The translations under genes were made by a program, and so were the position numbers. Below are positions 720 through 58,160 of a DNA stretch of 64,000 nucleotides, one piece after another. The notes beneath the pieces were generated by a model. That model saw nothing but the letters and a program-made list of their open reading frames with translations. It was not told where the DNA came from and searched no databases. Numbering within the stretch: the first letter of the stretch is position 1; the number at the start of each line of letters is the position of its first letter. This stretch comes from a virus. Lineage: Duplodnaviria; Heunggongvirae; Uroviricota; Caudoviricetes. The stretch lies in IMG/VR virus record IMGVR_UViG_3300009154_000029. One strand, 5' to 3'.

Positions 720-2012
720 ATGAATAATATAGATAAAGCATACACAGACCTACTCCAAGACATTATAGACAACGGCTACACTAAAGAAGATCGTACTGGT
801 ACAGGAACTCTATCTCTATTTGGCTATCAGATTAGACATGATATGTCAGAGGGCTTTCCTCTACTCACTACCAAGAAGATGTACTTTAAAGGTATTGTAA
901 CAGAACTACTATGGTTCTTACGTGGTGATACATCAATAAAGTATTTGGTTGATAATAATTGCCATATTTGGGATGGAGACGCATGGAAGAATTATTGTAA
1001 TAAATGTAATGAAGATGAGTGGATGAAAGAAATCATTTTAGATTTACCGTTCCATAATAAAAGTTATGGTCTCTATTCACAAGAAGAGTTTATCAACAAA
1101 ATCAAAACCGATGATGAGTTTACTAAGAAGTGGGGTGAATTAGGACCAATTTATGGTAAGCAGTGGAGAAGTTGGCGTAGTAGTAGAAGTGTTGGTGATG
1201 ACACGTTTGTCGGTGGTTATTTTGTTAAAGATGAAAAAACTGACCAAATAGCAAACCTAATCTCTGAACTCAAAACAAATCCTGACTCAAGACGATTAAT
1301 GGTTAGTGCTTGGAATGTAGGTGAGTTGGATCAAATGGTACTTCCACCATGTCATTATGGATTTCAAGTTTATACGAGAGAGTTGAGTTTGGAAGAGAGG
1401 AGAACATTGCTTTTAAAAGATGACCCACATGGAATACAACCAACTACAGATTGGACAGAATCTCAATTAGTAGATTGTAAATTACAATTAGACGAGTTGA
1501 ATATCCCGACTAGAGCAATCTCATTGATGTGGAATCAACGCTCAGTAGATACATTCCTTGGTTTACCATTCAACATAGCATCTTATGGATTACTACTTGA
1601 AATCATAGCCAAAGAAGTTAATATGATCCCTGATGAATTGATTGGTAACTTGGGTGATGTTCATTTATACTCAAATCATATTGAACAGGCTAAGGAGCAG
1701 ATTGGTAGACCTTATACCCAGGAGGAAAGAATCCAGCTTTTAAAAGAAGCTATGGGTCAAGAGGCTTATGATTTAGCTGTTAGTGAATTGATGCCATTCG
1801 GAGGAGGATTAAGTGAGTATTATGATCATTATAAAATACCTCACTCAACCAGAGAATCTTTTCCTTTACCTAAGCTAGTTCATATGAAGACAGAAGCTTT
1901 CTATAAATCACTATCAGAAAACCAATCTTTGTATGGTCATATAGACCCGAAGGATTTTCAATTAGAAAACTACCAATCACATCCAGCAATTAAAGCTACA
2001 CTAAGTAATTAA
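720..2012 (+). CDS. thyA: thymidylate synthase (ThyA family) with large insertions
   Basis: N-terminal DRTGTGTLSLFG, LPPCH catalytic Cys context, C-terminal conserved ThyA blocks; 430 aa vs ~264 aa typical implies inserted segments. Confidence 0.85.
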   Translation: MNNIDKAYTDLLQDIIDNGYTKEDRTGTGTLSLFGYQIRHDMSEGFPLLTTKKMYFKGIVTELLWFLRGDTSIKYLVDNNCHIWDGDAWKNYCNKCNEDEWMKEIILDLPFHNKSYGLYSQEEFINKIKTDDEFTKKWGELGPIYGKQWRSWRSSRSVGDDTFVGGYFVKDEKTDQIANLISELKTNPDSRRLMVSAWNVGELDQMVLPPCHYGFQVYTRELSLEERRTLLLKDDPHGIQPTTDWTESQLVDCKLQLDELNIPTRAISLMWNQRSVDTFLGLPFNIASYGLLLEIIAKEVNMIPDELIGNLGDVHLYSNHIEQAKEQIGRPYTQEERIQLLKEAMGQEAYDLAVSELMPFGGGLSEYYDHYKIPHSTRESFPLPKLVHMKTEAFYKSLSENQSLYGHIDPKDFQLENYQSHPAIKATLSN

Positions 2013-8895: not shown

Positions 8896-9942
8896 ATGAG
8901 TCATCGTCACCACCATCCCAAAGTTTTATTCCTTCTTAAAAAGAAGAAAATTTACGACACTCAGTCTTACACCAAAGTAATTCACTCAGGACTTTTTAAC
9001 AGTGCTACTTTTGTTAATGACATGTTAAACGCAAACGGAGTAAAATCATATTGCGTTCAAGTTATTGATTCTAATGACATCGATCGAGAAGTAAGTAAGA
9101 TCAGACCATCTGTAGTAGTTATAGAGGCTCTCTGGGTTACCCCACAAAAATTCTTGGAACTTCATAAACACCATCCAAAGATTAAATGGGTAGTTAGACT
9201 TCACTCAGAAATGCCATTTATTGCAAACGAAGGTCCAGCCATGGAATGGTCTTTTGAATATGACAAGCTATCTTCAATAATGGATATTACTATTGCTCCG
9301 AACACTTTAAAAATGGTTGGTGATCTTGAAAAAATCGGAATCCAAAAAATAGCTTATCTTCCCAATTACTACCCAGTAAAAGAGTGTAACCACAAACACC
9401 ATAAAAGTAAAGATCATATAGACATAGGTTGCTTTGGAGCTATTAGACCAATGAAGAATCAATTGATCCAGGCAGTAGCCGCTATCGATTTTGGTAACTC
9501 ACTAGGAAAGCCTATACACTTCCACGTAAACTCAGAGAGGATAGAAAAGGGTGAATCAGTTATTAAAAATATTAGGGCTCTTTTTGAAAATCAGGAGCAC
9601 CATAAATTAATAGAGCATCCTTGGCATTCACATGAGGAGTTTATTAAAATAATATCCAAGATGGATATAGGTCTCCAAGTCTCTTTTAATGAAACATTCA
9701 ATATAGTGGCAGCTGATTTTGTTTCTGAAAATGTTCCAATTATTGGATCTGATGAAATAAACTGGCTGAACTTTATCTATAAGGCTAGTCCAACATCTTC
9801 AAATGAGATTGTTAAGAAAATGAAGATAGCTTACATGTTTAGAAAACTAAACCTGCAAAAGCTAAATAAAATTGGACTCAAAGGGGTTTCTGAAGAATCA
9901 AAAGAAACCTGGCTTTGGTATTTGAAATCAAAAAAACATTAA
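8896..9942 (+). CDS. hypothetical protein (His-rich N-terminus; possible glycosyl-modification enzyme)
   Basis: ORF track; sits in a cluster with GT2 and LpxH-like genes. Confidence 0.35.
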   Translation: MSHRHHHPKVLFLLKKKKIYDTQSYTKVIHSGLFNSATFVNDMLNANGVKSYCVQVIDSNDIDREVSKIRPSVVVIEALWVTPQKFLELHKHHPKIKWVVRLHSEMPFIANEGPAMEWSFEYDKLSSIMDITIAPNTLKMVGDLEKIGIQKIAYLPNYYPVKECNHKHHKSKDHIDIGCFGAIRPMKNQLIQAVAAIDFGNSLGKPIHFHVNSERIEKGESVIKNIRALFENQEHHKLIEHPWHSHEEFIKIISKMDIGLQVSFNETFNIVAADFVSENVPIIGSDEINWLNFIYKASPTSSNEIVKKMKIAYMFRKLNLQKLNKIGLKGVSEESKETWLWYLKSKKH

Positions 9943-9943
9943 T

Positions 9944-10138
9944 ATGGAAGCACTTTACGATTACATCTTTTGGTATAACCATCATGAAGAAATATGGTAT
10001 GCCATAGAAAGAGACACACAGTTGGATTTCTTTAGAGGGAACAGAGAAAACTCAAAGTATTATAAATCCAATACGCACTCAACCCTAGTTGAGATTATCA
10101 CAAAACCAAAGCTTCTAGCTAAATTAGAGGGCAAGTAG
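9944..10138 (+). CDS. hypothetical protein
   Basis: ORF track. Confidence 0.3.
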   Translation: MEALYDYIFWYNHHEEIWYAIERDTQLDFFRGNRENSKYYKSNTHSTLVEIITKPKLLAKLEGK

Positions 10139-16063: not shown

Positions 16064-16933
16064 TTATTTTAAAAGTGCATAGTATTCTTTGAAGAGCTTT
16101 AACCTCTCTGGAAGACCTATGGTTCCCCCGTTTACTCTTTTTGTAACTGAGGTAACTGTTGCATCATCAGCACCTTTATCACAGATAGTCCAAAGACCAT
16201 TCTTTTGAAAAAAGAAAGCTGCAGAAGCAAGAGCGTATTTAGTTGATAATAAATCTGGATTTTCGATGATATTATCCTCTACGATTTTATCAAAATCAGA
16301 GTAGTTGGATTTACCTGTTGTTTGTAAAGCACCTCTTCCACGGAATTTCCAGCCATCTCCAGAAGATTCGTCCCCGTTGCCCATCCTTGAGGAGTAAACC
16401 TTGTTAGCAATCTTCTCTGGATTTTTAGCATAAGATTCATTCAGATTTCCTGGGAAGTATTTAGGAAAGATCTTCTTAAGACCATCCGCAGAGTAATTAA
16501 GATTCTCTGTGAACGATTTCCAGTGTCCAGATTCATGAGCTGCTTGTGACAGAAGGTGTGCAAGTCTTAGCACATTAGTGATTCCAAATTTAGCAGCGGT
16601 GTCTGGGATTTGTGCAATAATAGTGTCAGGCACATGTCCCTTAAGTGCAGACAGTTTAAATTCGCTGTTTGGAATAGCTACTTCAGATTCAGTTACTGTG
16701 ACAGAAGAGGCATCCAAACCCATCTTAGTCCAAGTCGCAGGTCCAACTATACCATCGGCAGATAAGCCATTTGCAGATTGCCAGGCTTTAACTGCTCTGT
16801 CTGTTCCAGGACCGAAATCGCCATCAGCGGTTAGCCCTAATTTGGCTTGAAGTTTCTTAACATCTTCGCCTTTAGATCCAATTTTAAGATTCATAGAATA
16901 TCGTTTTTTGCAATATATATCCGGGAGGGTCAT
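16064..16933 (-). CDS. endolysin: PG_binding_1 domain plus GH19-type muramidase/chitinase-like catalytic domain
   Basis: N-terminal KLQAKLGLTADGDFGPGTDRAVKAWQ (PG_binding_1 twice); AHLLSQAAHESG block typical of GH19 phage lysins. Confidence 0.7.
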   Translation of the reverse strand: MTLPDIYCKKRYSMNLKIGSKGEDVKKLQAKLGLTADGDFGPGTDRAVKAWQSANGLSADGIVGPATWTKMGLDASSVTVTESEVAIPNSEFKLSALKGHVPDTIIAQIPDTAAKFGITNVLRLAHLLSQAAHESGHWKSFTENLNYSADGLKKIFPKYFPGNLNESYAKNPEKIANKVYSSRMGNGDESSGDGWKFRGRGALQTTGKSNYSDFDKIVEDNIIENPDLLSTKYALASAAFFFQKNGLWTICDKGADDATVTSVTKRVNGGTIGLPERLKLFKEYYALLK

Positions 16934-23589: not shown

Positions 23590-24213
23590 ATGGAAAAAAG
23601 ACTAAAAGGTGAATTAAGTAAAAGCGAATCTGGCCGATGGGCAATCTGGTACTGGAAAGAGGATAGAAACTCCTTTGAAGGAGGTAAATATCCGGTTCAC
23701 CCAGAGATCCAAGAAAAAATGGAACAATTCGAATTTATGGATTATCTTAGCGATGGCATTGAGGTTGAATTTGTTATAGTTAAAGATGATAAAGTGTGCG
23801 AGGAGTTTGGAACTAACGAATATGCGAAAATTGTTCAACCGGAGGAAGAGGAGATTTCTGAATTTAAAAAAATAAGGGAATCTATTATCAGACAATTGAA
23901 AAATGTGATCTATGATAATGGAGACGTATCGGATGTTGGGAATGAGATAGGAATTGCAATAGCAAAACACCTTAACGAAAACCAAAACGTTGAAGACTTT
24001 ATGCATGGAGTAAGACATGGGGTTTCGTTAATTGACGGATCGCATTCTTCCGATTTCGAGCCTGTTGTTTCTGATGATTTTACAATAGGCCCAAATGGGG
24101 CATATGAATATCAAGACTGGGATCAAGTTTTCGAAAGCTACTTAGGTGCTCAAGATCTTCATTCTTTCCTAGAGTGGCTGAAACAAAATTACGATTCTCC
24201 GGTTATAAAATAG
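23590..24213 (+). CDS. hypothetical acidic protein
   Basis: ORF track. Confidence 0.4.
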   Translation: MEKRLKGELSKSESGRWAIWYWKEDRNSFEGGKYPVHPEIQEKMEQFEFMDYLSDGIEVEFVIVKDDKVCEEFGTNEYAKIVQPEEEEISEFKKIRESIIRQLKNVIYDNGDVSDVGNEIGIAIAKHLNENQNVEDFMHGVRHGVSLIDGSHSSDFEPVVSDDFTIGPNGAYEYQDWDQVFESYLGAQDLHSFLEWLKQNYDSPVIK

Positions 24214-24371
24214 TCAGGTGGCGGAATGGATAGACGCATACTTGTTGGTTTTAAGGTTAAAACATGATTTGCAAACATGGGGTAGTTCCACGCATAGGGG
24301 ATTAGTGCACATGAGTCCTTCTGTAATAAAGAAAAATACCCACCATACAGGTTCGAATCCTGTCCTGACTA
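24212..24371 (+). tRNA. tRNA-like gene with ~70-nt excess in central region (intron-containing or degenerate type II tRNA, Leu-like 5' half)
   Basis: perfect 7-bp acceptor AGTCAGG/CCTGACT, U8, D-arm GCG-GAATGGATAGA-CGC like tRNA-Leu, T-arm ACAGG-TTCGAAT-CCTGT, discriminator A; 160 nt total. Confidence 0.45.
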
Positions 24372-24446
24372 CAATGAATAGAGCAGTTGAGTTCATTACT
24401 CAAAGGAACGCAGACAGTGGAGATGAGCGACCCACCTATTCAAAAT

Positions 24447-24541
24447 AGTCAGGTGGCGGAATGGTAGACGCTATCGTTACAAAGGTAGAATAGTAAATAG
24501 TTTACGCTCTATTCTTACAGGTTCGAATCCTGTCTTGGCTA
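24447..24541 (+). tRNA. tRNA-like gene, type II (long extra arm), anticodon arm not confidently foldable
   Basis: same 5' 25 nt and T-arm as upstream copy; acceptor AGTCAGG/CTTGGCT with two G-U; 7-bp AGAATAG/CTATTCT hairpin in the variable region; 95 nt. Confidence 0.45.
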
Positions 24542-24554
24542 CAAATTAAAAAAA

Positions 24555-32335: not shown

Positions 32336-32905
32336 TTACTTTTTTAGAAGATCGTTAAGAACATAGGTTCCCCTTTCGTTTAAGGGAACACCGCTTAGAT
32401 CTGTATAGGGTATACATTCAAGGTCAAGATAATTTTTGATGATTGCATCAAGTTTAATGATTTCCTCCTTATTATGGAATCTTATGCCATCATTTTCTGT
32501 ACCTTCTAGAACTGGCGGGACATAATATATTCTATGCCATTGGTTTATTGATTTTAGAATCTCCTTTTGCACATGATTGATTGTTGCTATCTCCTTTAAA
32601 GAAAGGTTACCTTTAAAAAGCGATCTAAAGTAAAAATAGTTTAGCAAGGAGCTGGAGTCACAAATGATCCACTCTTTTGAACCAACATACATTCTTTCCC
32701 TCCCCAATTGTTTATAAAATATCACCAGCTGATCCATGGCAGAATCTGGGATACCCCACTCTGCAATATAATCGGTAGCTGCTTCTCCTACAAAGATTGA
32801 ATTCTTTCTTTTAATTTTAAGACTATGGTGAAGTGATGTTGCTAAAGTGCTTTTTCCTGAGCATGGAGCTCCTATAACTGAGACTAAATACGATTGTGTT
32901 TTCAT
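32336..32905 (-). CDS. P-loop NTPase / nucleotide-kinase-like protein
   Basis: Walker A GAPCSGKST at residues 12-20; 189 aa kinase-sized. Confidence 0.45.
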   Translation of the reverse strand: MKTQSYLVSVIGAPCSGKSTLATSLHHSLKIKRKNSIFVGEAATDYIAEWGIPDSAMDQLVIFYKQLGRERMYVGSKEWIICDSSSLLNYFYFRSLFKGNLSLKEIATINHVQKEILKSINQWHRIYYVPPVLEGTENDGIRFHNKEEIIKLDAIIKNYLDLECIPYTDLSGVPLNERGTYVLNDLLKK

Positions 32906-33039: not shown

Positions 33040-33468
33040 GTGAAACTATCTATAGCAAACAGAAAAGCCAAATTTGATTATGAATTTTTAGAAATCTGGA
33101 TTGCTGGGATTTGTTTAACCGGATCTGAGGTTAAGTCAGTTAGGGATTCAAAGGTTTCCATGGTGGATTCCTTTTGCTTTTTTATCTCTGATGAACTTTG
33201 GCTTAAGGGAATGACCATAACACCTGGATTGAATTCTTTCCAACATGACCCTATAAGGGATCGAAAGCTGTTATTAAAAAGAAAGGAGTTAAAGAAATTA
33301 AAGGATAAAATGGATCAGGGATTAACTATAGTTCCAATCCGGATATTTTCATCAGAAAGAAATCTTATTAAAGTTGAGATAGCTCTAGCAAAAGGAAAAA
33401 AGAGCTACGATAAAAGAAACGCAATCAAGGAAAGAGAGGCTGAAAGAGAGATTAGAAAATTATATTAA
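33040..33468 (+). CDS. smpB: SsrA-binding protein SmpB
   Basis: whole-length similarity to SmpB: IAxNxKAxxDYxxxE, GTEVKS, ITP, DPxRxRKLLLxxxEL, IALAKGKKxxDKRxxIKERE. Confidence 0.8.
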   Translation: MKLSIANRKAKFDYEFLEIWIAGICLTGSEVKSVRDSKVSMVDSFCFFISDELWLKGMTITPGLNSFQHDPIRDRKLLLKRKELKKLKDKMDQGLTIVPIRIFSSERNLIKVEIALAKGKKSYDKRNAIKEREAEREIRKLY

Positions 33469-33477
33469 AATTTAGTT

Positions 33478-34242
33478 ATGAAAAAAATACTAAAAGAAAT
33501 TTATCCATTCTGTAAAAAAGCTAGAAATGAAGGAACAGCTTTTGCCAATGGACATATAGACTACCCTGCCAGGGTTAAGTTTTTGGTAAACCTCTTAGAG
33601 AAATTTGACATATCGCATTTTGTAGATTCATTTGCAACTGAGGTTCATCCCATGATAAATTTTCATAATATAGTTATGCCGGGAAAAAGCAGCTATATTA
33701 TAATTGCTCATCATGATATAGTTAATCCAAATTCAGATAATGCAAATGACAACTCTGCTTCTGTTATTAACGCAATCTACCTTAAGTCACTTGTTCCTGA
33801 TGCAACTGTTGTTTTGACTGATTGTGAGGAGGTTGGAATGTACGGAGCAAAAAGACTCTGTGAGCAAATAAAAAGTGGTCTTTATGGTGAGATCAAGGGT
33901 GTTATAAATCTCGAACTTACTGGAGCTGGAGGAAAATCTATAATGATAGGGGATTATCCAGGATCACTGAATGAAAGAATTAGAATTTTATTCGAAGCAC
34001 CTGTTTTTTCAACACCTCCAAGCGACACCGTTATTTTTAGAAGGGAAGGTATAGATAGCACAGTGATTAATCCACTGCCTATAGTATCCGAGAACTTTTC
34101 AAATATGCCAACTCAGGGAGGATATTTAGATAACTCATCATGGTGGAGATGTCACACTGAGGAAGACTCTGTTGATCAAATATCTATTGATGATATGCAC
34201 CAGTTTGTAACCAAAATTCTTGTTCCTCTTATTAAACCTTAA
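33478..34242 (+). CDS. M28/M20-like zinc peptidase candidate
   Basis: HHD..., DNSAS, CEEVG, NLELTG blocks in metal-ligand order of M28-type peptidases. Confidence 0.35.
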   Translation: MKKILKEIYPFCKKARNEGTAFANGHIDYPARVKFLVNLLEKFDISHFVDSFATEVHPMINFHNIVMPGKSSYIIIAHHDIVNPNSDNANDNSASVINAIYLKSLVPDATVVLTDCEEVGMYGAKRLCEQIKSGLYGEIKGVINLELTGAGGKSIMIGDYPGSLNERIRILFEAPVFSTPPSDTVIFRREGIDSTVINPLPIVSENFSNMPTQGGYLDNSSWWRCHTEEDSVDQISIDDMHQFVTKILVPLIKP

Positions 34243-34346: not shown

Positions 34347-34538
34347 ATGAATCATTTTGTTATTAGCGGATCTATTGTCCAAGCAATGAAGGAAAAATAT
34401 GGTGAAGAGATGGTAGAAAAGTGCTTCTATCTAGCAAGTCAAAAATTTCCTACAGATGTCTATGAGGACATAAAGGATAGCGGAGAAATGGATTTAATGG
34501 ATTGTTTTTGTACTATTTACGAAGGTCTTCTGAAATAG
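34347..34538 (+). CDS. hypothetical protein
   Basis: ORF track. Confidence 0.3.
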   Translation: MNHFVISGSIVQAMKEKYGEEMVEKCFYLASQKFPTDVYEDIKDSGEMDLMDCFCTIYEGLLK

Positions 34539-34925
34539 AATTCCTATTTAAATACCTCGTAAGCAAGATATAGGATAACCAAAAACAACCTGAAATTGAA
34601 TAAAAAACGATGTCTGCAGCCCAATAAGAACCTGTCAAGTCCATGATGAGCTTGAAGAGAGCATCGTAGCCAAACGGAAGAAAAAACATTGCGAGCATTA
34701 AAGAGGTTTCCTTTAAGATCGTGAGTCTTTTCTTTTTGTCTTTGAGTATTTTGATTTTTTCTATCACCAGGGTCGTCGTCCATATTGGAAAATTTTTTCA
34801 CAATTTAGCTCCATAGTGGAAAAAAACTGCGGAATTCAAGTTATTCGTTGTATATATTGGAAAAGTTTTGCAAAATAAGGAACTTACACCACTTTATCCT
34901 CATAGAAAAAATAAAATTAAAAATT

Positions 34926-44115: not shown

Positions 44116-46404
44116 TTACTTGTATTTTCTGATTGATTCTTTTCTGTCTTTAAGGATTTTAAGAAGTCTTTTAGCCACATCCATCTCAGAAGCCTTTCTT
44201 AAAGCTAATGGACCTGGGTCAACGGAAGGTCTTTTTATTGGATCATCATCCGGATCGGTTGGTCTTTGAGGTTTAACTGGTTTTTCAGGATCAACATCAG
44301 GATCAACGTCTGGATCACTTGGTCTAGGCCTAGTGGCAGGCTCTGCATAAGTGAAAGCTTCGAAAGTCATAATTTTTCTAGATCCTATCGATTGTGATCC
44401 GTCCTCGAATAAATTAAAAATTCTTTGTACTCTTGAAGATTTGCTCTCGTTTACAGGTGTTCCGTTAATAACCAATTTGTTATTAACTATATCATATTCA
44501 AGGTGAATCTTATCTCCTACCTCATCATCTATAATTGCATTTGCGATAGGATCTTCGATATATTGTTGAATAGCACGTCTTAAAGGTCTAGCCCCCATTT
44601 CTTTATCATATCCATGCTTCATAATAATTTCCTTAACCGATCTTCCACAAGTTAATTCGATATTTCTTTCTTTTAACTTAGCTGCAACCTTATCTAATTC
44701 ACCATCTATGATTTTGTATAGATTGTCTTGCTCTAAAGGTTTAAATATAATTATTTCATCTATTCTATTAATAAACTCAGGTGGAAGTTTTTTCTTAAGA
44801 TCTGCCTTTACTGCATCTATTCTTTGAATCTCTTGTTTTGAAGCATCTGTAGAGAATCCTATCGTAGGTCTTCTCTCCTCCTCTGCCTTTGCTCCAATGT
44901 TAGAGGTCATGATTATAATGGTATTCTTGAAATCAACCTTTCTACCTTCGCCATCTGTCATATGTCCATCTTCAAAAACTTGAAGCCAAGATTGAAGAAC
45001 TTTAGCGTGTGCTTTTTCTAATTCGTCTAAAAGAACTATACAGTGTGGATTTCTTCTGATCTTTTCAGTGAACTGAGTTCCTTCGCCATATCCAACATAA
45101 CCTGGAGGTGAACCGAATAATCTAGAAACTGTATGAGGCTCACTGAATTCACTCATATCCAATCTAAACATTCTATTAGGATCCCCGAACATTTCCTTAG
45201 CTAAAGCTTTAACTAAGTGGGTTTTACCGACACCAGTAGGTCCAAGGAAAAGAAATACCCCCTCTGGACGGTTTGGATCTTTTAGACCTGCTTTAGTTCT
45301 TTTAATGATACGTGTTACAGCTTCAACTGCTTCGTCTTGTCCAATAACAGACATCTGCAATCTAGACTGTAGGCCTTTTAGAGATTGTTTTTGATCTCTA
45401 GAAACATTCTCGATAGGAATTCTAGTTTTCTTAGAAACAACCTCTTCGGCAAGTTCCTTAGTTATTGATATGGTTTCCTCTTTTGGTGAACCACCTTTAG
45501 CAGCCTTTAATTCCTCTTGGATCTCTTTAACCTTATCATGGGCTTCGAAAGACTCCTCAAATTTTTGTTCTTTTGCTAGACGATTAACCTTTTCCAAAGC
45601 AGATACAAGTTCTGTTTCTAATTCAATTACTCTAGGGTTTTTTGATCTAGACATACGAATTTTAGCTCCTGTTTCGTCCATTAAATCAATGGCCTTGTCA
45701 GGTAAAAATCTGTCGGTAATATATCTTTGTGAAAGTTTTATGAATGATTCTATAGCAGCATCTGTATATGAAACGTTATGAAACTCCTCGTATTTTTTCT
45801 TAATACCATTTAGTATTTCTAAACACTCAGAAAAACTAGGTTCATCCACATAGACCTTTTGAAATCTTCTTTCCATTGCTCCATCCTTCTCAATGCTTTC
45901 TCTGTATTCATTTAGTGTTGTTGCTCCAATTAAACTTAGTTTTCCTCTAGCTAGCGCTGGTTTAAGTGCGTCATAAACCTGTGGTTTTTTTAAGGTGTGC
46001 ATCTCATCCATAAATAGAACTAATCCCTCAGTCTCAACTTCTTGAATAAGTTGTCCTAAAGCACCCACTGCAAAAACTGCGTTAAGATCTATTGATATTA
46101 GTTTTTTGCCGCCTAAAAATTGAGGACAATCACCGCTTGCCATTACTATTGCTAGTTTTTCAACTGCGGCTGTTTTACCTACTCCTGGTTCACCAATTAA
46201 AACTGGATTATTCTTGGTTTTTCTACTTAAAACCCAAATAACTTGTTCAAGTTCTTTGTCTCTTCCAACGACAGGATCTATCTTTCCGTCCTTTGCCATC
46301 TGGGTTAAATCAACACCCAGTGCTTTATAGACCTTGTTACCCTCTGTGACCTGTTGATCTTCAATCTGGCTTTCCAGTACTTTTTTAGTGTGTAGTCTTT
46401 TCAT
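44116..46404 (-). CDS. ClpA/ClpC-like double-AAA+ unfoldase lacking N-domain, with IGF ClpP-docking loop and Pro/Asp-rich C-terminal tail
   Basis: two Walker A boxes GEPGVGKT and GPTGVGKT ~317 aa apart, sensor/arginine-finger blocks, PTIGFSTD loop, tail [28 protein letters not shown]. Confidence 0.8.
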
Positions 46405-55874: not shown

Positions 55875-58160
55875 TCAATTTTTTACAAATCTGTAAATTT
55901 TTGAACCGCTTGTTAGACTTAACAAAAGGATATATGTTCCTGACGATATCACAGAGGTATTTACAACCACTATATTACTCCCCTTAGATAGACGTATTTT
56001 ATTTCTGTATACTATTCTTCCCATCGCATCTATAACATTCACATTTGAGAATTGAGCGGATTCTGAAAAAAAATTTATTCTGTATACATCTTTAACAGGA
56101 TTAGGGGATCCCTCATTAGAGGAAGATCTTACTAGAACTGTAGCAGTTGAAATCTTTGTTAATAAAGCTGATCCATAGGCAGGGATTGTAATGGTTCCAA
56201 TATAGTTATTACCATATACATCTCTGTATGTACCATCCAATGTAGTGACAACAGGGGCATTAGTAGTATTATAAAAAGGAATAAATGTTGTTGTAGGAAT
56301 AGCTACACTTGCGGCATCCCCAGCTATAAATGTTTTCCAGGCAGTCAGTTTCAAACTTGCGGGATCTACAAATGTACCACCAGAGGTAAGATGGTAATAG
56401 TAGTCAAATGGATTGGTTACGTCATCTCTGTAGTAGTTGCTATCAAATACAGCAATCAATCTCATATCATTCTGGATAGTGATTGTTGTAGGAGTATTTA
56501 ACGCACCGTTCCAGTAAAAGAAGTTTTTTTGAGAGGTGGTTGATGGATATATGACATTTTTCTTAACCGTATTGTTTCTCACCTGAGATGTGTCGCTAGG
56601 AAGCCTGTTCATAGAAATACAATCTGTACTGTTATACACCATGTTGGTACGAATATTAACTCTCTTACTATTATTAAGAAATATTCCCTCTCCATTTGTA
56701 GAAGAAACTGAATTACTTGTAATGTTTACATCACTAGCTCCATCTATATAAATACCCCTAGCATCTCCGGTAGTTGTGCTAGTACCAGCTGCTGCTCCCA
56801 CTGTAGTGATAATGATATTATTAGAAATTGTTCTGTTTGTCTTGCCTAAACCTGTGTAAGTGTAAATAGCTCCACCGTCATTCTTCTCACTATTAGTATT
56901 AGTGATATAGTTTTTGTCTACAAGCACATTACCACCCTTCCAATCAATACCATTGAAGCCAATACTATCTATTCTGTTATTAGTAATTGTTACCCCAAGC
57001 CCATCTACAAACACAGCAGCACCTTGTCCATCATCACCTGATCTACCCATTCCGGGGATAAGTCCACACTTAGAAATGGTATTAAACCTAACAGTAACAG
57101 CCCTATCTGCTCTCCCCTGAAGACGAACCCCAGTGTTAAGGCAGTTCTTTATTGTGCTGGACTCAACCAATGCATTCGCCACATACCACATCTTTACAGC
57201 ATCAAAGTTGTACTCAAATTCGCAATTAGATACGGTGATGTTGCTAGCATCCTTTGCTATTAAAGCAGCATAACCAGCTCCGGTAAATCTAAGGTAACTA
57301 AACTTAATATTACTCCTTGCTGTTCTCCCACCGTATCCACCGCAGTGAACCAATGTATCTTGTGCACTCACTTTAATGGTATAACTAGCTGGATTGAGAT
57401 TGCCAAAGTACACTTGTAATGTTTTCCCTGAATTGTTCCAATACCACTCCCCAAAACTGTCAAGAGTCCTGATGTCATCCTGAAAAAAGAACCCGTAATT
57501 AGCTTTCCCGGGATAGGTGTTAGTAACACCTGACCAAATATCACCACTAGCTGGAGCTGGGTTTCTATAGCTCACCTTTGTACCAACTTGGCTTTTAACT
57601 CTTCCTGTATCTAAAATCCATCTCTCTTTCCTTACAATAATCTGAGCTCCTGTCCAGTTAGTTGTGCTTAACTGACTGCTAGTCAAACTGGTATCTCCAG
57701 CTGAAAGTGTACCCACTGACTGATAGGTTAGATATCCCTTATTTGTTGCTGTGTAATTAGGGAATCTACCCATTCCTGTCAGAACACCATTAACCGTTAC
57801 TATCGAAGCTCTACTCGGATCACTGGTTATAGGGTTACTACTGTAGATGCCCACCCCTGAAAGAGTCCATCCTGTAACAGTTACAAATCCGGTAATCTCA
57901 GGAAGGCTTCCTGTACCATAAGCATTAAACACTAGGTTGTCTCTATTGGGAATAAGCTTTCCCTGAAACACATCCCCTCGTTTAAAAGAAATGGTGTCAC
58001 CAGAAGCAAAGGTGGCTGTGTTCACCTTATTTAGTGACTGCCACGGAGCGCCCAATGTGCCAGCATTAGCATCATTTCCCGTGCTTGATGATACGTAATA
58101 ATTCTTTGCCTGTGCTCCTAGGGACGACAAAATGATAAGGTAAAAAATCAGGGCTCTCAT
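55875..58160 (-). CDS. secreted right-handed beta-helix protein with T9SS C-terminal sorting domain
   Basis: signal peptide MRALIFYLIILSSLGAQA, parallel beta-helix-like repeats, C-terminal ~80 aa with Por-secretion CTD pattern. Confidence 0.6.
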   Translation of the reverse strand: MRALIFYLIILSSLGAQAKNYYVSSSTGNDANAGTLGAPWQSLNKVNTATFASGDTISFKRGDVFQGKLIPNRDNLVFNAYGTGSLPEITGFVTVTGWTLSGVGIYSSNPITSDPSRASIVTVNGVLTGMGRFPNYTATNKGYLTYQSVGTLSAGDTSLTSSQLSTTNWTGAQIIVRKERWILDTGRVKSQVGTKVSYRNPAPASGDIWSGVTNTYPGKANYGFFFQDDIRTLDSFGEWYWNNSGKTLQVYFGNLNPASYTIKVSAQDTLVHCGGYGGRTARSNIKFSYLRFTGAGYAALIAKDASNITVSNCEFEYNFDAVKMWYVANALVESSTIKNCLNTGVRLQGRADRAVTVRFNTISKCGLIPGMGRSGDDGQGAAVFVDGLGVTITNNRIDSIGFNGIDWKGGNVLVDKNYITNTNSEKNDGGAIYTYTGLGKTNRTISNNIIITTVGAAAGTSTTTGDARGIYIDGASDVNITSNSVSSTNGEGIFLNNSKRVNIRTNMVYNSTDCISMNRLPSDTSQVRNNTVKKNVIYPSTTSQKNFFYWNGALNTPTTITIQNDMRLIAVFDSNYYRDDVTNPFDYYYHLTSGGTFVDPASLKLTAWKTFIAGDAASVAIPTTTFIPFYNTTNAPVVTTLDGTYRDVYGNNYIGTITIPAYGSALLTKISTATVLVRSSSNEGSPNPVKDVYRINFFSESAQFSNVNVIDAMGRIVYRNKIRLSKGSNIVVVNTSVISSGTYILLLSLTSGSKIYRFVKN

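Follow-up and report, generated by a model that had tools for sequence, protein, structure and literature searches.

Genes for termination and ribosome rescue are already on record for phages with genomes larger than 200 kb, in which transfer-messenger RNAs (tmRNAs) and their protein partner SmpB have been reported among the translation genes (Al-Shayeb et al. 2020, PMC7162821). Phage-borne SmpB is a known category and an expected item of the huge-phage repertoire. The opposite situation is found in mycobacteriophages of the Bxz1 group and in Bacillus phage G, which encode ssrA without smpB, in a survey that lists smpB for no phage (Hudson et al. 2014, PMC4131195). Here we describe an smpB gene on a stretch of 64,000 nucleotides (the window) of IMG/VR virus record IMGVR_UViG_3300009154_000029. 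Like those phages the window carries one half of the trans-translation system, but here it is the protein half. The 2020 study names the two genes together and leaves their linkage unexamined; to it this locus adds a virus-specific compact clade of SmpBs, a loose linkage of smpB to ssrA, and recurrent ClpP and peptidase neighbors, while the lack of a tmRNA so far reflects the extent of the window and cannot yet be ascribed to the phage.

Identity and ancestry of the window SmpB

By all sequence tests the open reading frame (ORF) is predicted to encode a true, intact and conventional SmpB (Table 1). The product matches PF01668 over residues 5-140 (E=1.1e-48; 165 bits, cutoff 27) and scores above the curated cutoffs of two NCBIfam equivalog models, TIGR00086 (168.3 bits, cutoff 119.1) and NF003843 (167.3 bits, cutoff 130). 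An earlier note on this DNA, made from its letters alone, had read the ORF as a full-length SmpB of 142 amino acids with a conserved tail and had proposed a profile search to separate SmpB proper from a resemblance in fold only; the equivalog scores identify SmpB proper, and with the structural alignments they bear that reading out. Solved SmpB structures align with the window protein from end to end, including the C-terminal tail, with residues 14-155 of 7ljp corresponding to residues 2-140 of the query (E=3e-40), and the Thermus structure 1j1h also aligns through the tail. The tail of the window protein, EIALAKGKKSYDKRNAIKEREAEREIRKLY, aligns to those of the PDB entries and contains the hinge glycine, the KK pair, the DKR motif and the basic helix.

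The protein carries the same motifs as bacterial SmpB (TIGR00086/PF01668) along its full length, namely the N-terminal NRKA.FDY, GSEVKS, RKLLL, TIVP and the KGKKxYDKR tail with its basic helix. Its nearest named homologs, at ~53-56% identity, belong to Chitinophagales, Spirosoma, Cytophagales and Carboxylicivirga. Relative to Bacteroidota SmpB it is 8-16 residues shorter, starts without the N-terminal extension and has lost 2-3 residues from the PGLNS-FQHDP loop, and it differs from bacterial SmpB in being carried by a phage and in belonging to a virus-only clade. The shorter length, missing extension and loop deletion could be taken to favor a decoy or inhibitor, in which the phage protein would sequester host tmRNA or block stalled ribosomes, for example sparing phage proteins from tagging. 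There is a precedent in mycobacteriophage DS6A, whose RNA consisting only of a tRNA-like domain (TLD) has been proposed to titrate SmpB (PMC4131195). We consider such a role very unlikely. The tail is intact and conserved as in bacteria, which would be unexpected for a dominant-negative protein: the motif EIALAKGKKxYDKR..IKeR is kept at 80% or more among ~100 members of the viral clade, in which the mean top-residue frequency is 0.73 in the tail compared to 0.66 in the body, and bacterial-type proteins are much alike in this respect. That the tail is conserved at least as well as the body speaks against a decoy that is truncated or dominant-negative. The strong purifying selection over the whole length also counts against it, and the linkage to ClpP described below fits productive tagging better.

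The window gene is maintained by purifying selection and is no pseudogene. Its product is 74% identical, without gaps, to that of the ortholog at L024 (L numbers denote genomic loci, and P numbers SmpB proteins on contigs), with nonsynonymous (pN) and synonymous (pS) differences of 0.15 and 0.67 and a dN/dS of ~0.10. The smpB gene of L020 is identical to that of the window.

In a neighbor-joining tree of 132 SmpB sequences, built without bootstrap, the window protein belongs to a deep clade with many members, all of them short SmpBs (139-148 amino acids). This compact clade includes P0003, P0008, P0009, P0031, P0034, P0055, P0059, P0060, P0062 and P0109, on contigs of 197-403 kb, as well as IMG/VR loci L001-L004, L007 and L010, and no named bacterium in the tree falls inside it. 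Named Bacteroidota SmpBs (150-158 amino acids) form a separate group, which also contains viral SmpBs whose genes are adjacent to ssrA (L005, L016, L017). Because these ssrA-adjacent viral proteins group with Bacteroidota and the compact clade stands apart, smpB seems to have been gained by phages more than once, and the window copy seems to be part of an old, vertically diversifying viral lineage. The phylogeny of phage against bacterial SmpB that the earlier note had called for therefore places the window protein in a virus-only clade. In a supplementary genome of PMC7162821, ALT_..._scaffold_111, the N-terminus of SmpB matches the lineage of L002-L004, within the same broad clade. The SmpBs of Lak megaphages and of LR756501-LR756504 are only 42-52% identical to the window protein, those of the 636-735 kb phages and the Lak megaphages being more distant from it. 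Such proteins belong to the PHROGs family phrog_6791, which is labeled 'unknown function', and a megablast search of GenBank phages with the smpB region returned no match.

The sequence content assigns the window to a virus, and in particular to a very large phage. That it could instead be a bacterial contig, with the gene being the organism's own smpB, might be argued from the universality of SmpB in bacteria and from the Bacteroidota origin of the nearest named homologs, and we regard this as practically negligible. Most ORFs in the window are ORFans that match no family, and an endolysin and a phage-type thymidylate synthase are among those that do. Its nearest relatives come from IMG/VR and from metagenomes, on contigs 200-430 kb long, the closest being on contigs of 290-330 kb. 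L024 is colinear with the window over the whole smpB region, and L027, which is partly syntenic, has a gene with a Gp23 capsid-protein domain. Ribosomal RNA genes and ordinary tRNAs were not found in the window, and the SmpB clade is one without a named bacterial member. The samples are JGI and ENA environmental metagenomes, probably from freshwater lakes. The host is probably a freshwater member of the Bacteroidota, because the nearest named SmpBs are from this phylum, the window contains an ORF with a Por_Secre_tail domain, and in published huge-phage genomes SmpBs of this kind are annotated with best hits in Bacteroidetes. This ORF, which encodes a large beta-helix protein, is unusual cargo for a phage and is itself a clue to a Bacteroidota host.

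Search for a partner tmRNA

The window SmpB may be a working, conventional SmpB in trans-translation whose partner tmRNA would be a phage gene outside the window, a reading to which we assign a probability of roughly 0.5. That the protein would function in trans-translation with a tmRNA of either phage or host origin is highly probable. In the proposed mechanism, SmpB would bind the tRNA-like domain of alanyl-tmRNA, and its conserved C-terminal tail would let the complex into ribosomes stalled on broken or stop-less messenger RNAs (mRNAs), which should be plentiful once infection shuts down host transcription and degrades host transcripts. Rescue would keep ribosomes available for phage proteins, and the tagged fragments would pass to Clp-type proteolysis and peptidases with recycling of their amino acids. 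The earlier note had suggested that the phage supplements or modulates host rescue. Supplementing is a reasonable function for the gene; the emphasis that the note placed on a missing tmRNA is not established.

The sequence of the phage that was searched comprises the 64-kb window and ~18 kb of flanks, ~82 kb altogether. The flanks come from contigs with identical proteins, reached through the first and last genes of the window, and extend ~8 kb upstream (L152) and ~10 kb downstream (L154, L155). Because the closest relatives are on contigs of 290-330 kb, the whole genome is probably much larger. Related loci were seen as ~20-kb views, covering 10 kb on each side of smpB. In the window, ARAGORN at default settings called no tRNA and no tmRNA gene, and Rfam at gathering thresholds returned only two tRNA-like matches, TL1 and TL2 (Table 1), and no tmRNA. 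On the L152, L154 and L155 flanks, ARAGORN and Rfam likewise gave no tmRNA. The sole match to any tmRNA family at E<=10, to alpha_tmRNA at 33667-33862 (18 bits, E=0.23), is regarded as noise, since it falls within the ORF of the conserved M28 peptidase and has no support from any other method. Permuted tmRNAs called by ARAGORN at low thresholds were all within coding regions. We also used a nucleotide profile of the lineage, built from 36 distinct phage tmRNAs, which recovers divergent tmRNAs that both Rfam and ARAGORN miss (L165, L184 and L189; E about 1e-24).

These searches sort the claims of the earlier note on this point. It had reported no second T-arm motif, and the exact sequence GGTTCGAATCC is indeed restricted to the two tRNA-like genes in the window; it had reported no tag-peptide frame, and none of the six-frame translations of the window has LAA, VAA, IAA or MAA directly before a stop codon. 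The search with tmRNA models that it proposed for the whole genome gave only the 18-bit noise match in the window and nothing on the flanks. Its statement that the gene comes without a tmRNA holds for the window and the ~18 kb of flanks and is unproven as a property of the phage, since L151 and L106 encode tmRNAs and the coverage is ~82 kb.

L151, which has a short-clade SmpB of the P0059 lineage on a 308-kb contig, contains a canonical tmRNA 4.2 kb upstream of smpB (RF00023, 58.9 bits, cutoff 47) with a G3:U70 pair and a tag ending in TELAIAA. L106, a 94-kb viral contig, encodes a tmRNA of 68.8 bits and shares with the window both the tRNA-like scaffold described below and a 66%-identical homolog of the small membrane-protein ORF downstream of smpB. 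A probe derived from the tmRNAs of L151 and L106 matched 65 viral contigs, many of them 170-430 kb in length, and at least 53 of the matches proved to be tmRNAs, with long and unusual tags. Large viral contigs from this type of habitat often encode a tmRNA. In other viral smpB loci ssrA is directly adjacent (L005, L016, L017-19), so that across loci the two genes are adjacent, a few kb apart, or single within the 20-kb view. If tmRNA genes were placed at random in a 300-kb genome, views of this size would be expected to show one in roughly the proportion of clade lineages seen here, about 1 of 11. Transferring the position of the tmRNA from L151 to the window by synteny was not feasible, as the two have too few genes in common.

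Several results weigh against a tmRNA gene elsewhere in this phage or against the pathway as proposed. ARAGORN, Rfam and the lineage profile all gave no tmRNA for the window and its flanks, and the closest relatives (L001, L020-L027) show none in the 10 kb on either side of smpB. A stricter probe of the L106 type matched 11 JGI contigs, none of them from this phage, though several of its contigs are in the collection. None of the 11 IMG/VR contigs with a short-type SmpB, including one of 434.5 kb, is among the 65 probe-positive contigs. These probe-negative results are weak evidence because the probes match, by a rough count, only about 2 of the 5 tmRNA types seen here. In addition, no ClpP was found in the window.

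The same results would suit a true orphan, in which the phage genome lacks ssrA and SmpB works with the tmRNA of the host. The rationale would be that tmRNA is abundant and stable and survives host shut-off, while SmpB needs resynthesis, so that the phage supplies the limiting protein half. Most other members of the compact clade also show no tmRNA near smpB; none was found within 10 kb of the gene in L002-L004, L007-L012 and L150, and the lineage profile was negative in these relatives too. In this clade, in spite of its age and diversity, smpB is mostly not linked to ssrA, whereas independent viral acquisitions keep ssrA adjacent. RNA genes seem scarce in the lineage of the window, where ~82 kb contain no canonical tRNA, and the reverse case of phages with ssrA and without smpB is documented (PMC4131195). 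On the other side, the searched part is a minority of the likely genome, the scarcity of tmRNAs near smpB in the clade is close to that of random placement, the relatives L151 and L106 encode tmRNAs, and the probes, by that rough count, miss most of the tmRNA types seen here. We regard an orphan SmpB as a serious but somewhat less probable explanation; the odds that the phage has its own tmRNA elsewhere in its genome are about even, and this is slightly favored over a host tmRNA alone.

Some phage tmRNAs among loci L156-L219, L220-L299 and L300-L310 have long, unusual tags, such as GNTNFWSLVNESVNAPVTEELLAA on contigs of ~270 kb, as well as DKTQSSRVAEGDAILASIFGEVAIAA and ELSNYTFESLVAELEGSELELA. 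Many phage tmRNAs of 440-500 nucleotides (nt) were missed by ARAGORN and detected by Rfam RF00023, which means that surveys made with ARAGORN only under-count phage tmRNAs. Together with the virus-only clade and the variable tmRNA linkage, the long-tag tmRNAs offer a natural experiment on which half of the system is limiting in the infected cell.

TL1, TL2 and a family of tRNA-Leu-like scaffolds

TL1 and TL2 each have an acceptor stem, a D arm and a T arm with the GTTCGAATC loop. Common to both are an identical 5' acceptor strand, a regular class-II D arm (GGCGGAATGG(A)TAGACGC), the T arm and A73, and in neither is CCA encoded. Against the Rfam tRNA model (RF00005, cutoff 29) TL1 scores 32.8 bits, with an unaligned center of 88 nt, and TL2 33.9 bits; a structural scanner finds both, with no matches in 20 shuffles. 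Pairing of the TL2 acceptor is kept by the wobbles U3:G70 and G6:U67, and the T stem covaries, with fully compensated double changes in other copies. On these grounds TL1 and TL2 are real structured RNAs. Single-sequence folding was uninformative, with z-scores of -0.1 and -1.0.

They are neither tmRNAs nor decoding tRNAs. The 3:70 pair is U3:A70 in TL1 and U3:G70 in TL2, and the alanine identity pair G3:U70 is present in neither. No tmRNA family matched at 24.2-24.6 kb even at E<=10, where clan competition may hide weak matches; ARAGORN made no tmRNA call there even at relaxed thresholds, and the lineage tmRNA profile was also negative. Inspected by eye, TL1 contains only trivial tag frames, such as GCA AAC ATG GGG TAG. 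A 5-bp anticodon stem with a 7-nt loop and U33 is found in neither element, and ARAGORN at default settings rejects both. At relaxed settings it accepts them only by invoking artificial introns or by merging the two elements; it reports a 'tRNA-Leu(UAG), 240-nt intron' at 24212-24542, an artefact in which the 5' half of TL1 is fused to the 3' half of TL2 through their common scaffold. The earlier note had raised the possibility that these genes are functionally connected to SmpB; a role as its functional partner is not supported, given the lack of G3:U70, the normal D stem, the failure of the tmRNA models and the dispersal of the family without smpB.

The inserts, notably that of the second slot, behave like exchangeable cassettes. 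In L020, a near-identical strain, TL1 is identical, and the TL2 slot (1118-1261) holds a 144-nt element with an unrelated insert of 95 nt compared to 46 nt in the window. In L065 a copy of TL1 with 95% identity lies between wholly different flanks, and the TL2 slot (about 9875-9946) cannot be aligned to the scaffold and is called a 72-nt tRNA-Lys by ARAGORN. One difference between the TL1 copies changes the palindrome GTGCAC to GTATAC, so self-complementarity is kept. Upstream, the TAG stop of an ORF of 207 amino acids (23590-24213) overlaps nucleotides 1-2 of TL1, and a mini-ORF of 24 codons (24375-24449) fills the spacer between the two elements, its TAG overlapping TL2 likewise. The idea that RNase P cleavage at such elements would remove the upstream stop and create non-stop mRNAs in need of SmpB was rejected as a family trait, since only 8 of 100 elements close an ORF of 50 or more codons in this way.

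A search with a 17-nt scaffold pattern matched at least 120 viral contigs (loci L030-L149, for example L039, L047, L065, L069, L081 and L104-L106). Among the matches listed there are at least 116 distinct elements on more than 100 IMG/VR contigs, with inserts of 17-109 nt; 103 of these elements could be parsed and contain 86 unrelated insert families, and 22 of 123 are called as tRNAs, with improbable anticodons. The common scaffold comprises the acceptor AGUCAGG/CCUGACU, a class-II D arm, a T arm and A73, without encoded CCA; its 5' half is invariant because the search pattern requires it. The base at position -1 is T in 86% of members. Contigs with the scaffold carry scattered homologs of window proteins (25-66% identity), which indicates that the family is dispersed through a broad phage lineage, and some copies lie within RNA-gene clusters beside tmRNAs or tRNAs (L106, L165, L184, L189, L193).

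A73 and the core formed by the D and T loops are what RNase P and RNase Z recognize. The same features are reported to suffice for leucylation, for which the anticodon arm is dispensable (PMC2377443). Our best guess is that the scaffolds are processed and possibly leucylated, tRNA-scaffolded small RNAs, or else processing signals. No description of this family was found in a literature search. The 'species 1 and 2' stable RNAs of the phage T4 tRNA cluster are reportedly also tRNA-like without decoding. Plant mitochondrial t-elements likewise combine an acceptor stem and T arm without decoding function (PMC1920247). Like both of these, the scaffolds are intergenic, co-oriented with flanking genes and sometimes inside tRNA or tmRNA clusters; they differ in being tRNA-Leu-like, with a complete D arm and A73 around a hypervariable center. 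A scaffold family with hypervariable centers may prove more interesting than SmpB.

A sister lineage of the window (L002-L004) has tandem noncoding islands 1-6 kb downstream of smpB, for which the window contains no counterpart. Each island starts with a 57-nt tRNA-like RNA made of acceptor, D and T arms without an anticodon arm, followed by several insert-bearing modules, one of which (L004, 16454-16522) has a G3:U70 pair. At its end each island has a conserved ~115-nt element with a covarying closing stem (GGAUGG/CCAUCC compared to GAAUAG/CUAUUC). None of the island elements matches an Rfam family.

Such armless RNAs raise the idea that the compact viral SmpB has been uncoupled from tmRNA and pairs with phage tRNA-like RNAs in a tag-less, phage-controlled rescue, SmpB itself taking the place of the missing arm. 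In L002, L003, L004 and L150, smpB is followed at a distance of 1-6 kb by the armless elements of 57-59 nt, TL1 and TL2 are 9 kb from smpB in the window, a scaffold element is 2.4 kb from smpB in L064, and no tmRNA was found at any of these loci. TLD-only ssrA genes are found in jakobid mitochondria. One is also known from phage DS6A (PMC4131195). We nevertheless judge this pairing highly improbable. No element has G3:U70 consistently; the D stem is normal in all of them, and in many a helix occupies the place of the anticodon stem, where SmpB would sit. The scaffold family occurs on more than 100 contigs, mostly without smpB nearby and also beside bona fide tmRNAs and tRNA arrays, and elements of this kind are missing near smpB in L001, L024 and L027, the closest relatives.

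Neighboring genes and a possible link to proteolysis

The gene for an M28-family peptidase follows smpB closely, and the two are probably co-transcribed; scans for sigma-70 promoters around smpB gave chance-level matches only. The adjacency is kept in the L024 lineage, where the peptidase is 75% identical in amino acid sequence. The divergent gene upstream of smpB, encoding an AAA_28 protein, is 84-92% identical to its homologs in L024 and L027.

In L027, on a 328-kb contig, a ClpP gene lies directly upstream of smpB with a 4-nt overlap, and ClpP is also directly upstream on the 345-kb contig of P0031. This ClpP is a full-length match to true ClpP (E=8e-75), and its match to the prohead protease of ClpP-like type is far weaker (E=2e-19). 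In a third lineage the distance between ClpP and smpB is 9 kb. The window encodes a double-AAA+ ATPase of the Clp/Hsp100 type, for which the best NCBIfam matches are ClpB and ClpA, both below equivalog cutoffs. Its IGF tripeptide is located at about residue 515, between the Walker A motif of the second AAA+ domain (D2) and the C-terminus. The loop resembles the IGF/IGL loop that docks to ClpP, which is found in ClpA and ClpX and not in ClpB, and the window protein is a candidate ClpP-docking unfoldase. Among the clues from context, the best is that smpB is found again and again with proteolysis genes, the recurrent neighbors being ClpP, an M28 peptidase and a Clp ATPase; this suggests that rescue is coupled to proteolysis and fits productive tagging with subsequent degradation. 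If the phage SmpB acts in infection, large phages would manage ribosome stalling, probably coupled to their own Clp-type proteolysis, and the locus would be a concrete example of viral control over host translation quality control.

Table 1. Coordinates of features in the window and, where a locus is named, in related loci.
Feature	Coordinates	Strand	Remarks
Thymidylate synthase, phage-type	720-2012	+	430 amino acids; positions 29-307 of 335 of the PHROG profile matched
Endolysin	16064-16933		Family match
TL1	24212-24371	+	160 nt; tRNA-Leu-like scaffold (acceptor, D arm, T arm, A73); 110-nt insert replaces anticodon and variable arms
TL2	24447-24541	+	95 nt; TL1-type scaffold, different insert
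AAA_28 (nucleoside/nucleotide-kinase-like)	32336-32905	-	Divergent, upstream of smpB; PF13521 in L020, L024, L027 and P0031 contig
smpB	33040-33468	+	GTG start, 142 amino acids; Pfam/NCBIfam equivalog matches above curated cutoffs; PDB alignment
M28-family peptidase	33478-34242	+	9 nt downstream of smpB, co-oriented; PF04389 on identical genes in L020-L026
Small membrane protein (predicted)	34513-34767	-	Motif SLMLAMFFLPFGYDA; synteny anchor
Clp/Hsp100 double-AAA+ ATPase (candidate unfoldase)	44116-46404	-	phrog_4871, E=2e-210; two Walker A motifs; IGF tripeptide
Beta-helix protein	55875-58160	-	761 amino acids; Por_Secre_tail (type IX secretion sorting) domain annotated on identical L154 gene
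Noncoding island	L002 11498-12210		
Noncoding island	L003 15280-16010		
Noncoding island	L004 15607-16690		
Armless element, 59 nt	L150 13744-13802		
RF02914 match	L002 4017-4051		Rfam
RF02914 match	L003 3181-3215		Rfam
RF02914 match	L004 3026-3060		Rfam
RF02914 match	L150 2800-2834		Rfam

The length of the thymidylate synthase, compared to its PHROG profile, implies a putative insertion of ~100 amino acids or more. Homologs of the small membrane protein are encoded beside a tmRNA in L106, L159 and L303, and in some relatives also beside a tRNA array. The gene was tried as a tracer for tmRNA and smpB and proved too widespread for this purpose. Its product is unusually conserved, with 207 relatives in IMG/VR, of which the best 80 (72-94% identity) are spread across several huge-phage lineages with varied neighbors, and no smpB lies within 10 kb at any of these best 80 of the 207 loci. 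They represent other lineages, and the census shows only that linkage of smpB and ssrA varies.

At L150, an 86-amino-acid gene (9748-10008) overlaps the start of smpB and has a weak N-terminal match to the peptidyl-tRNA hydrolase Pth2 (E=5e-7) that covers 27 residues only. Genes for a PolyA_pol/CCA-type nucleotidyltransferase and an RNA ligase are found within 9 kb of it. In four related huge-phage loci the region ~6-7 kb upstream of smpB also matches RF02914, the DUF805b RNA motif, with scores at or close to the gathering threshold.

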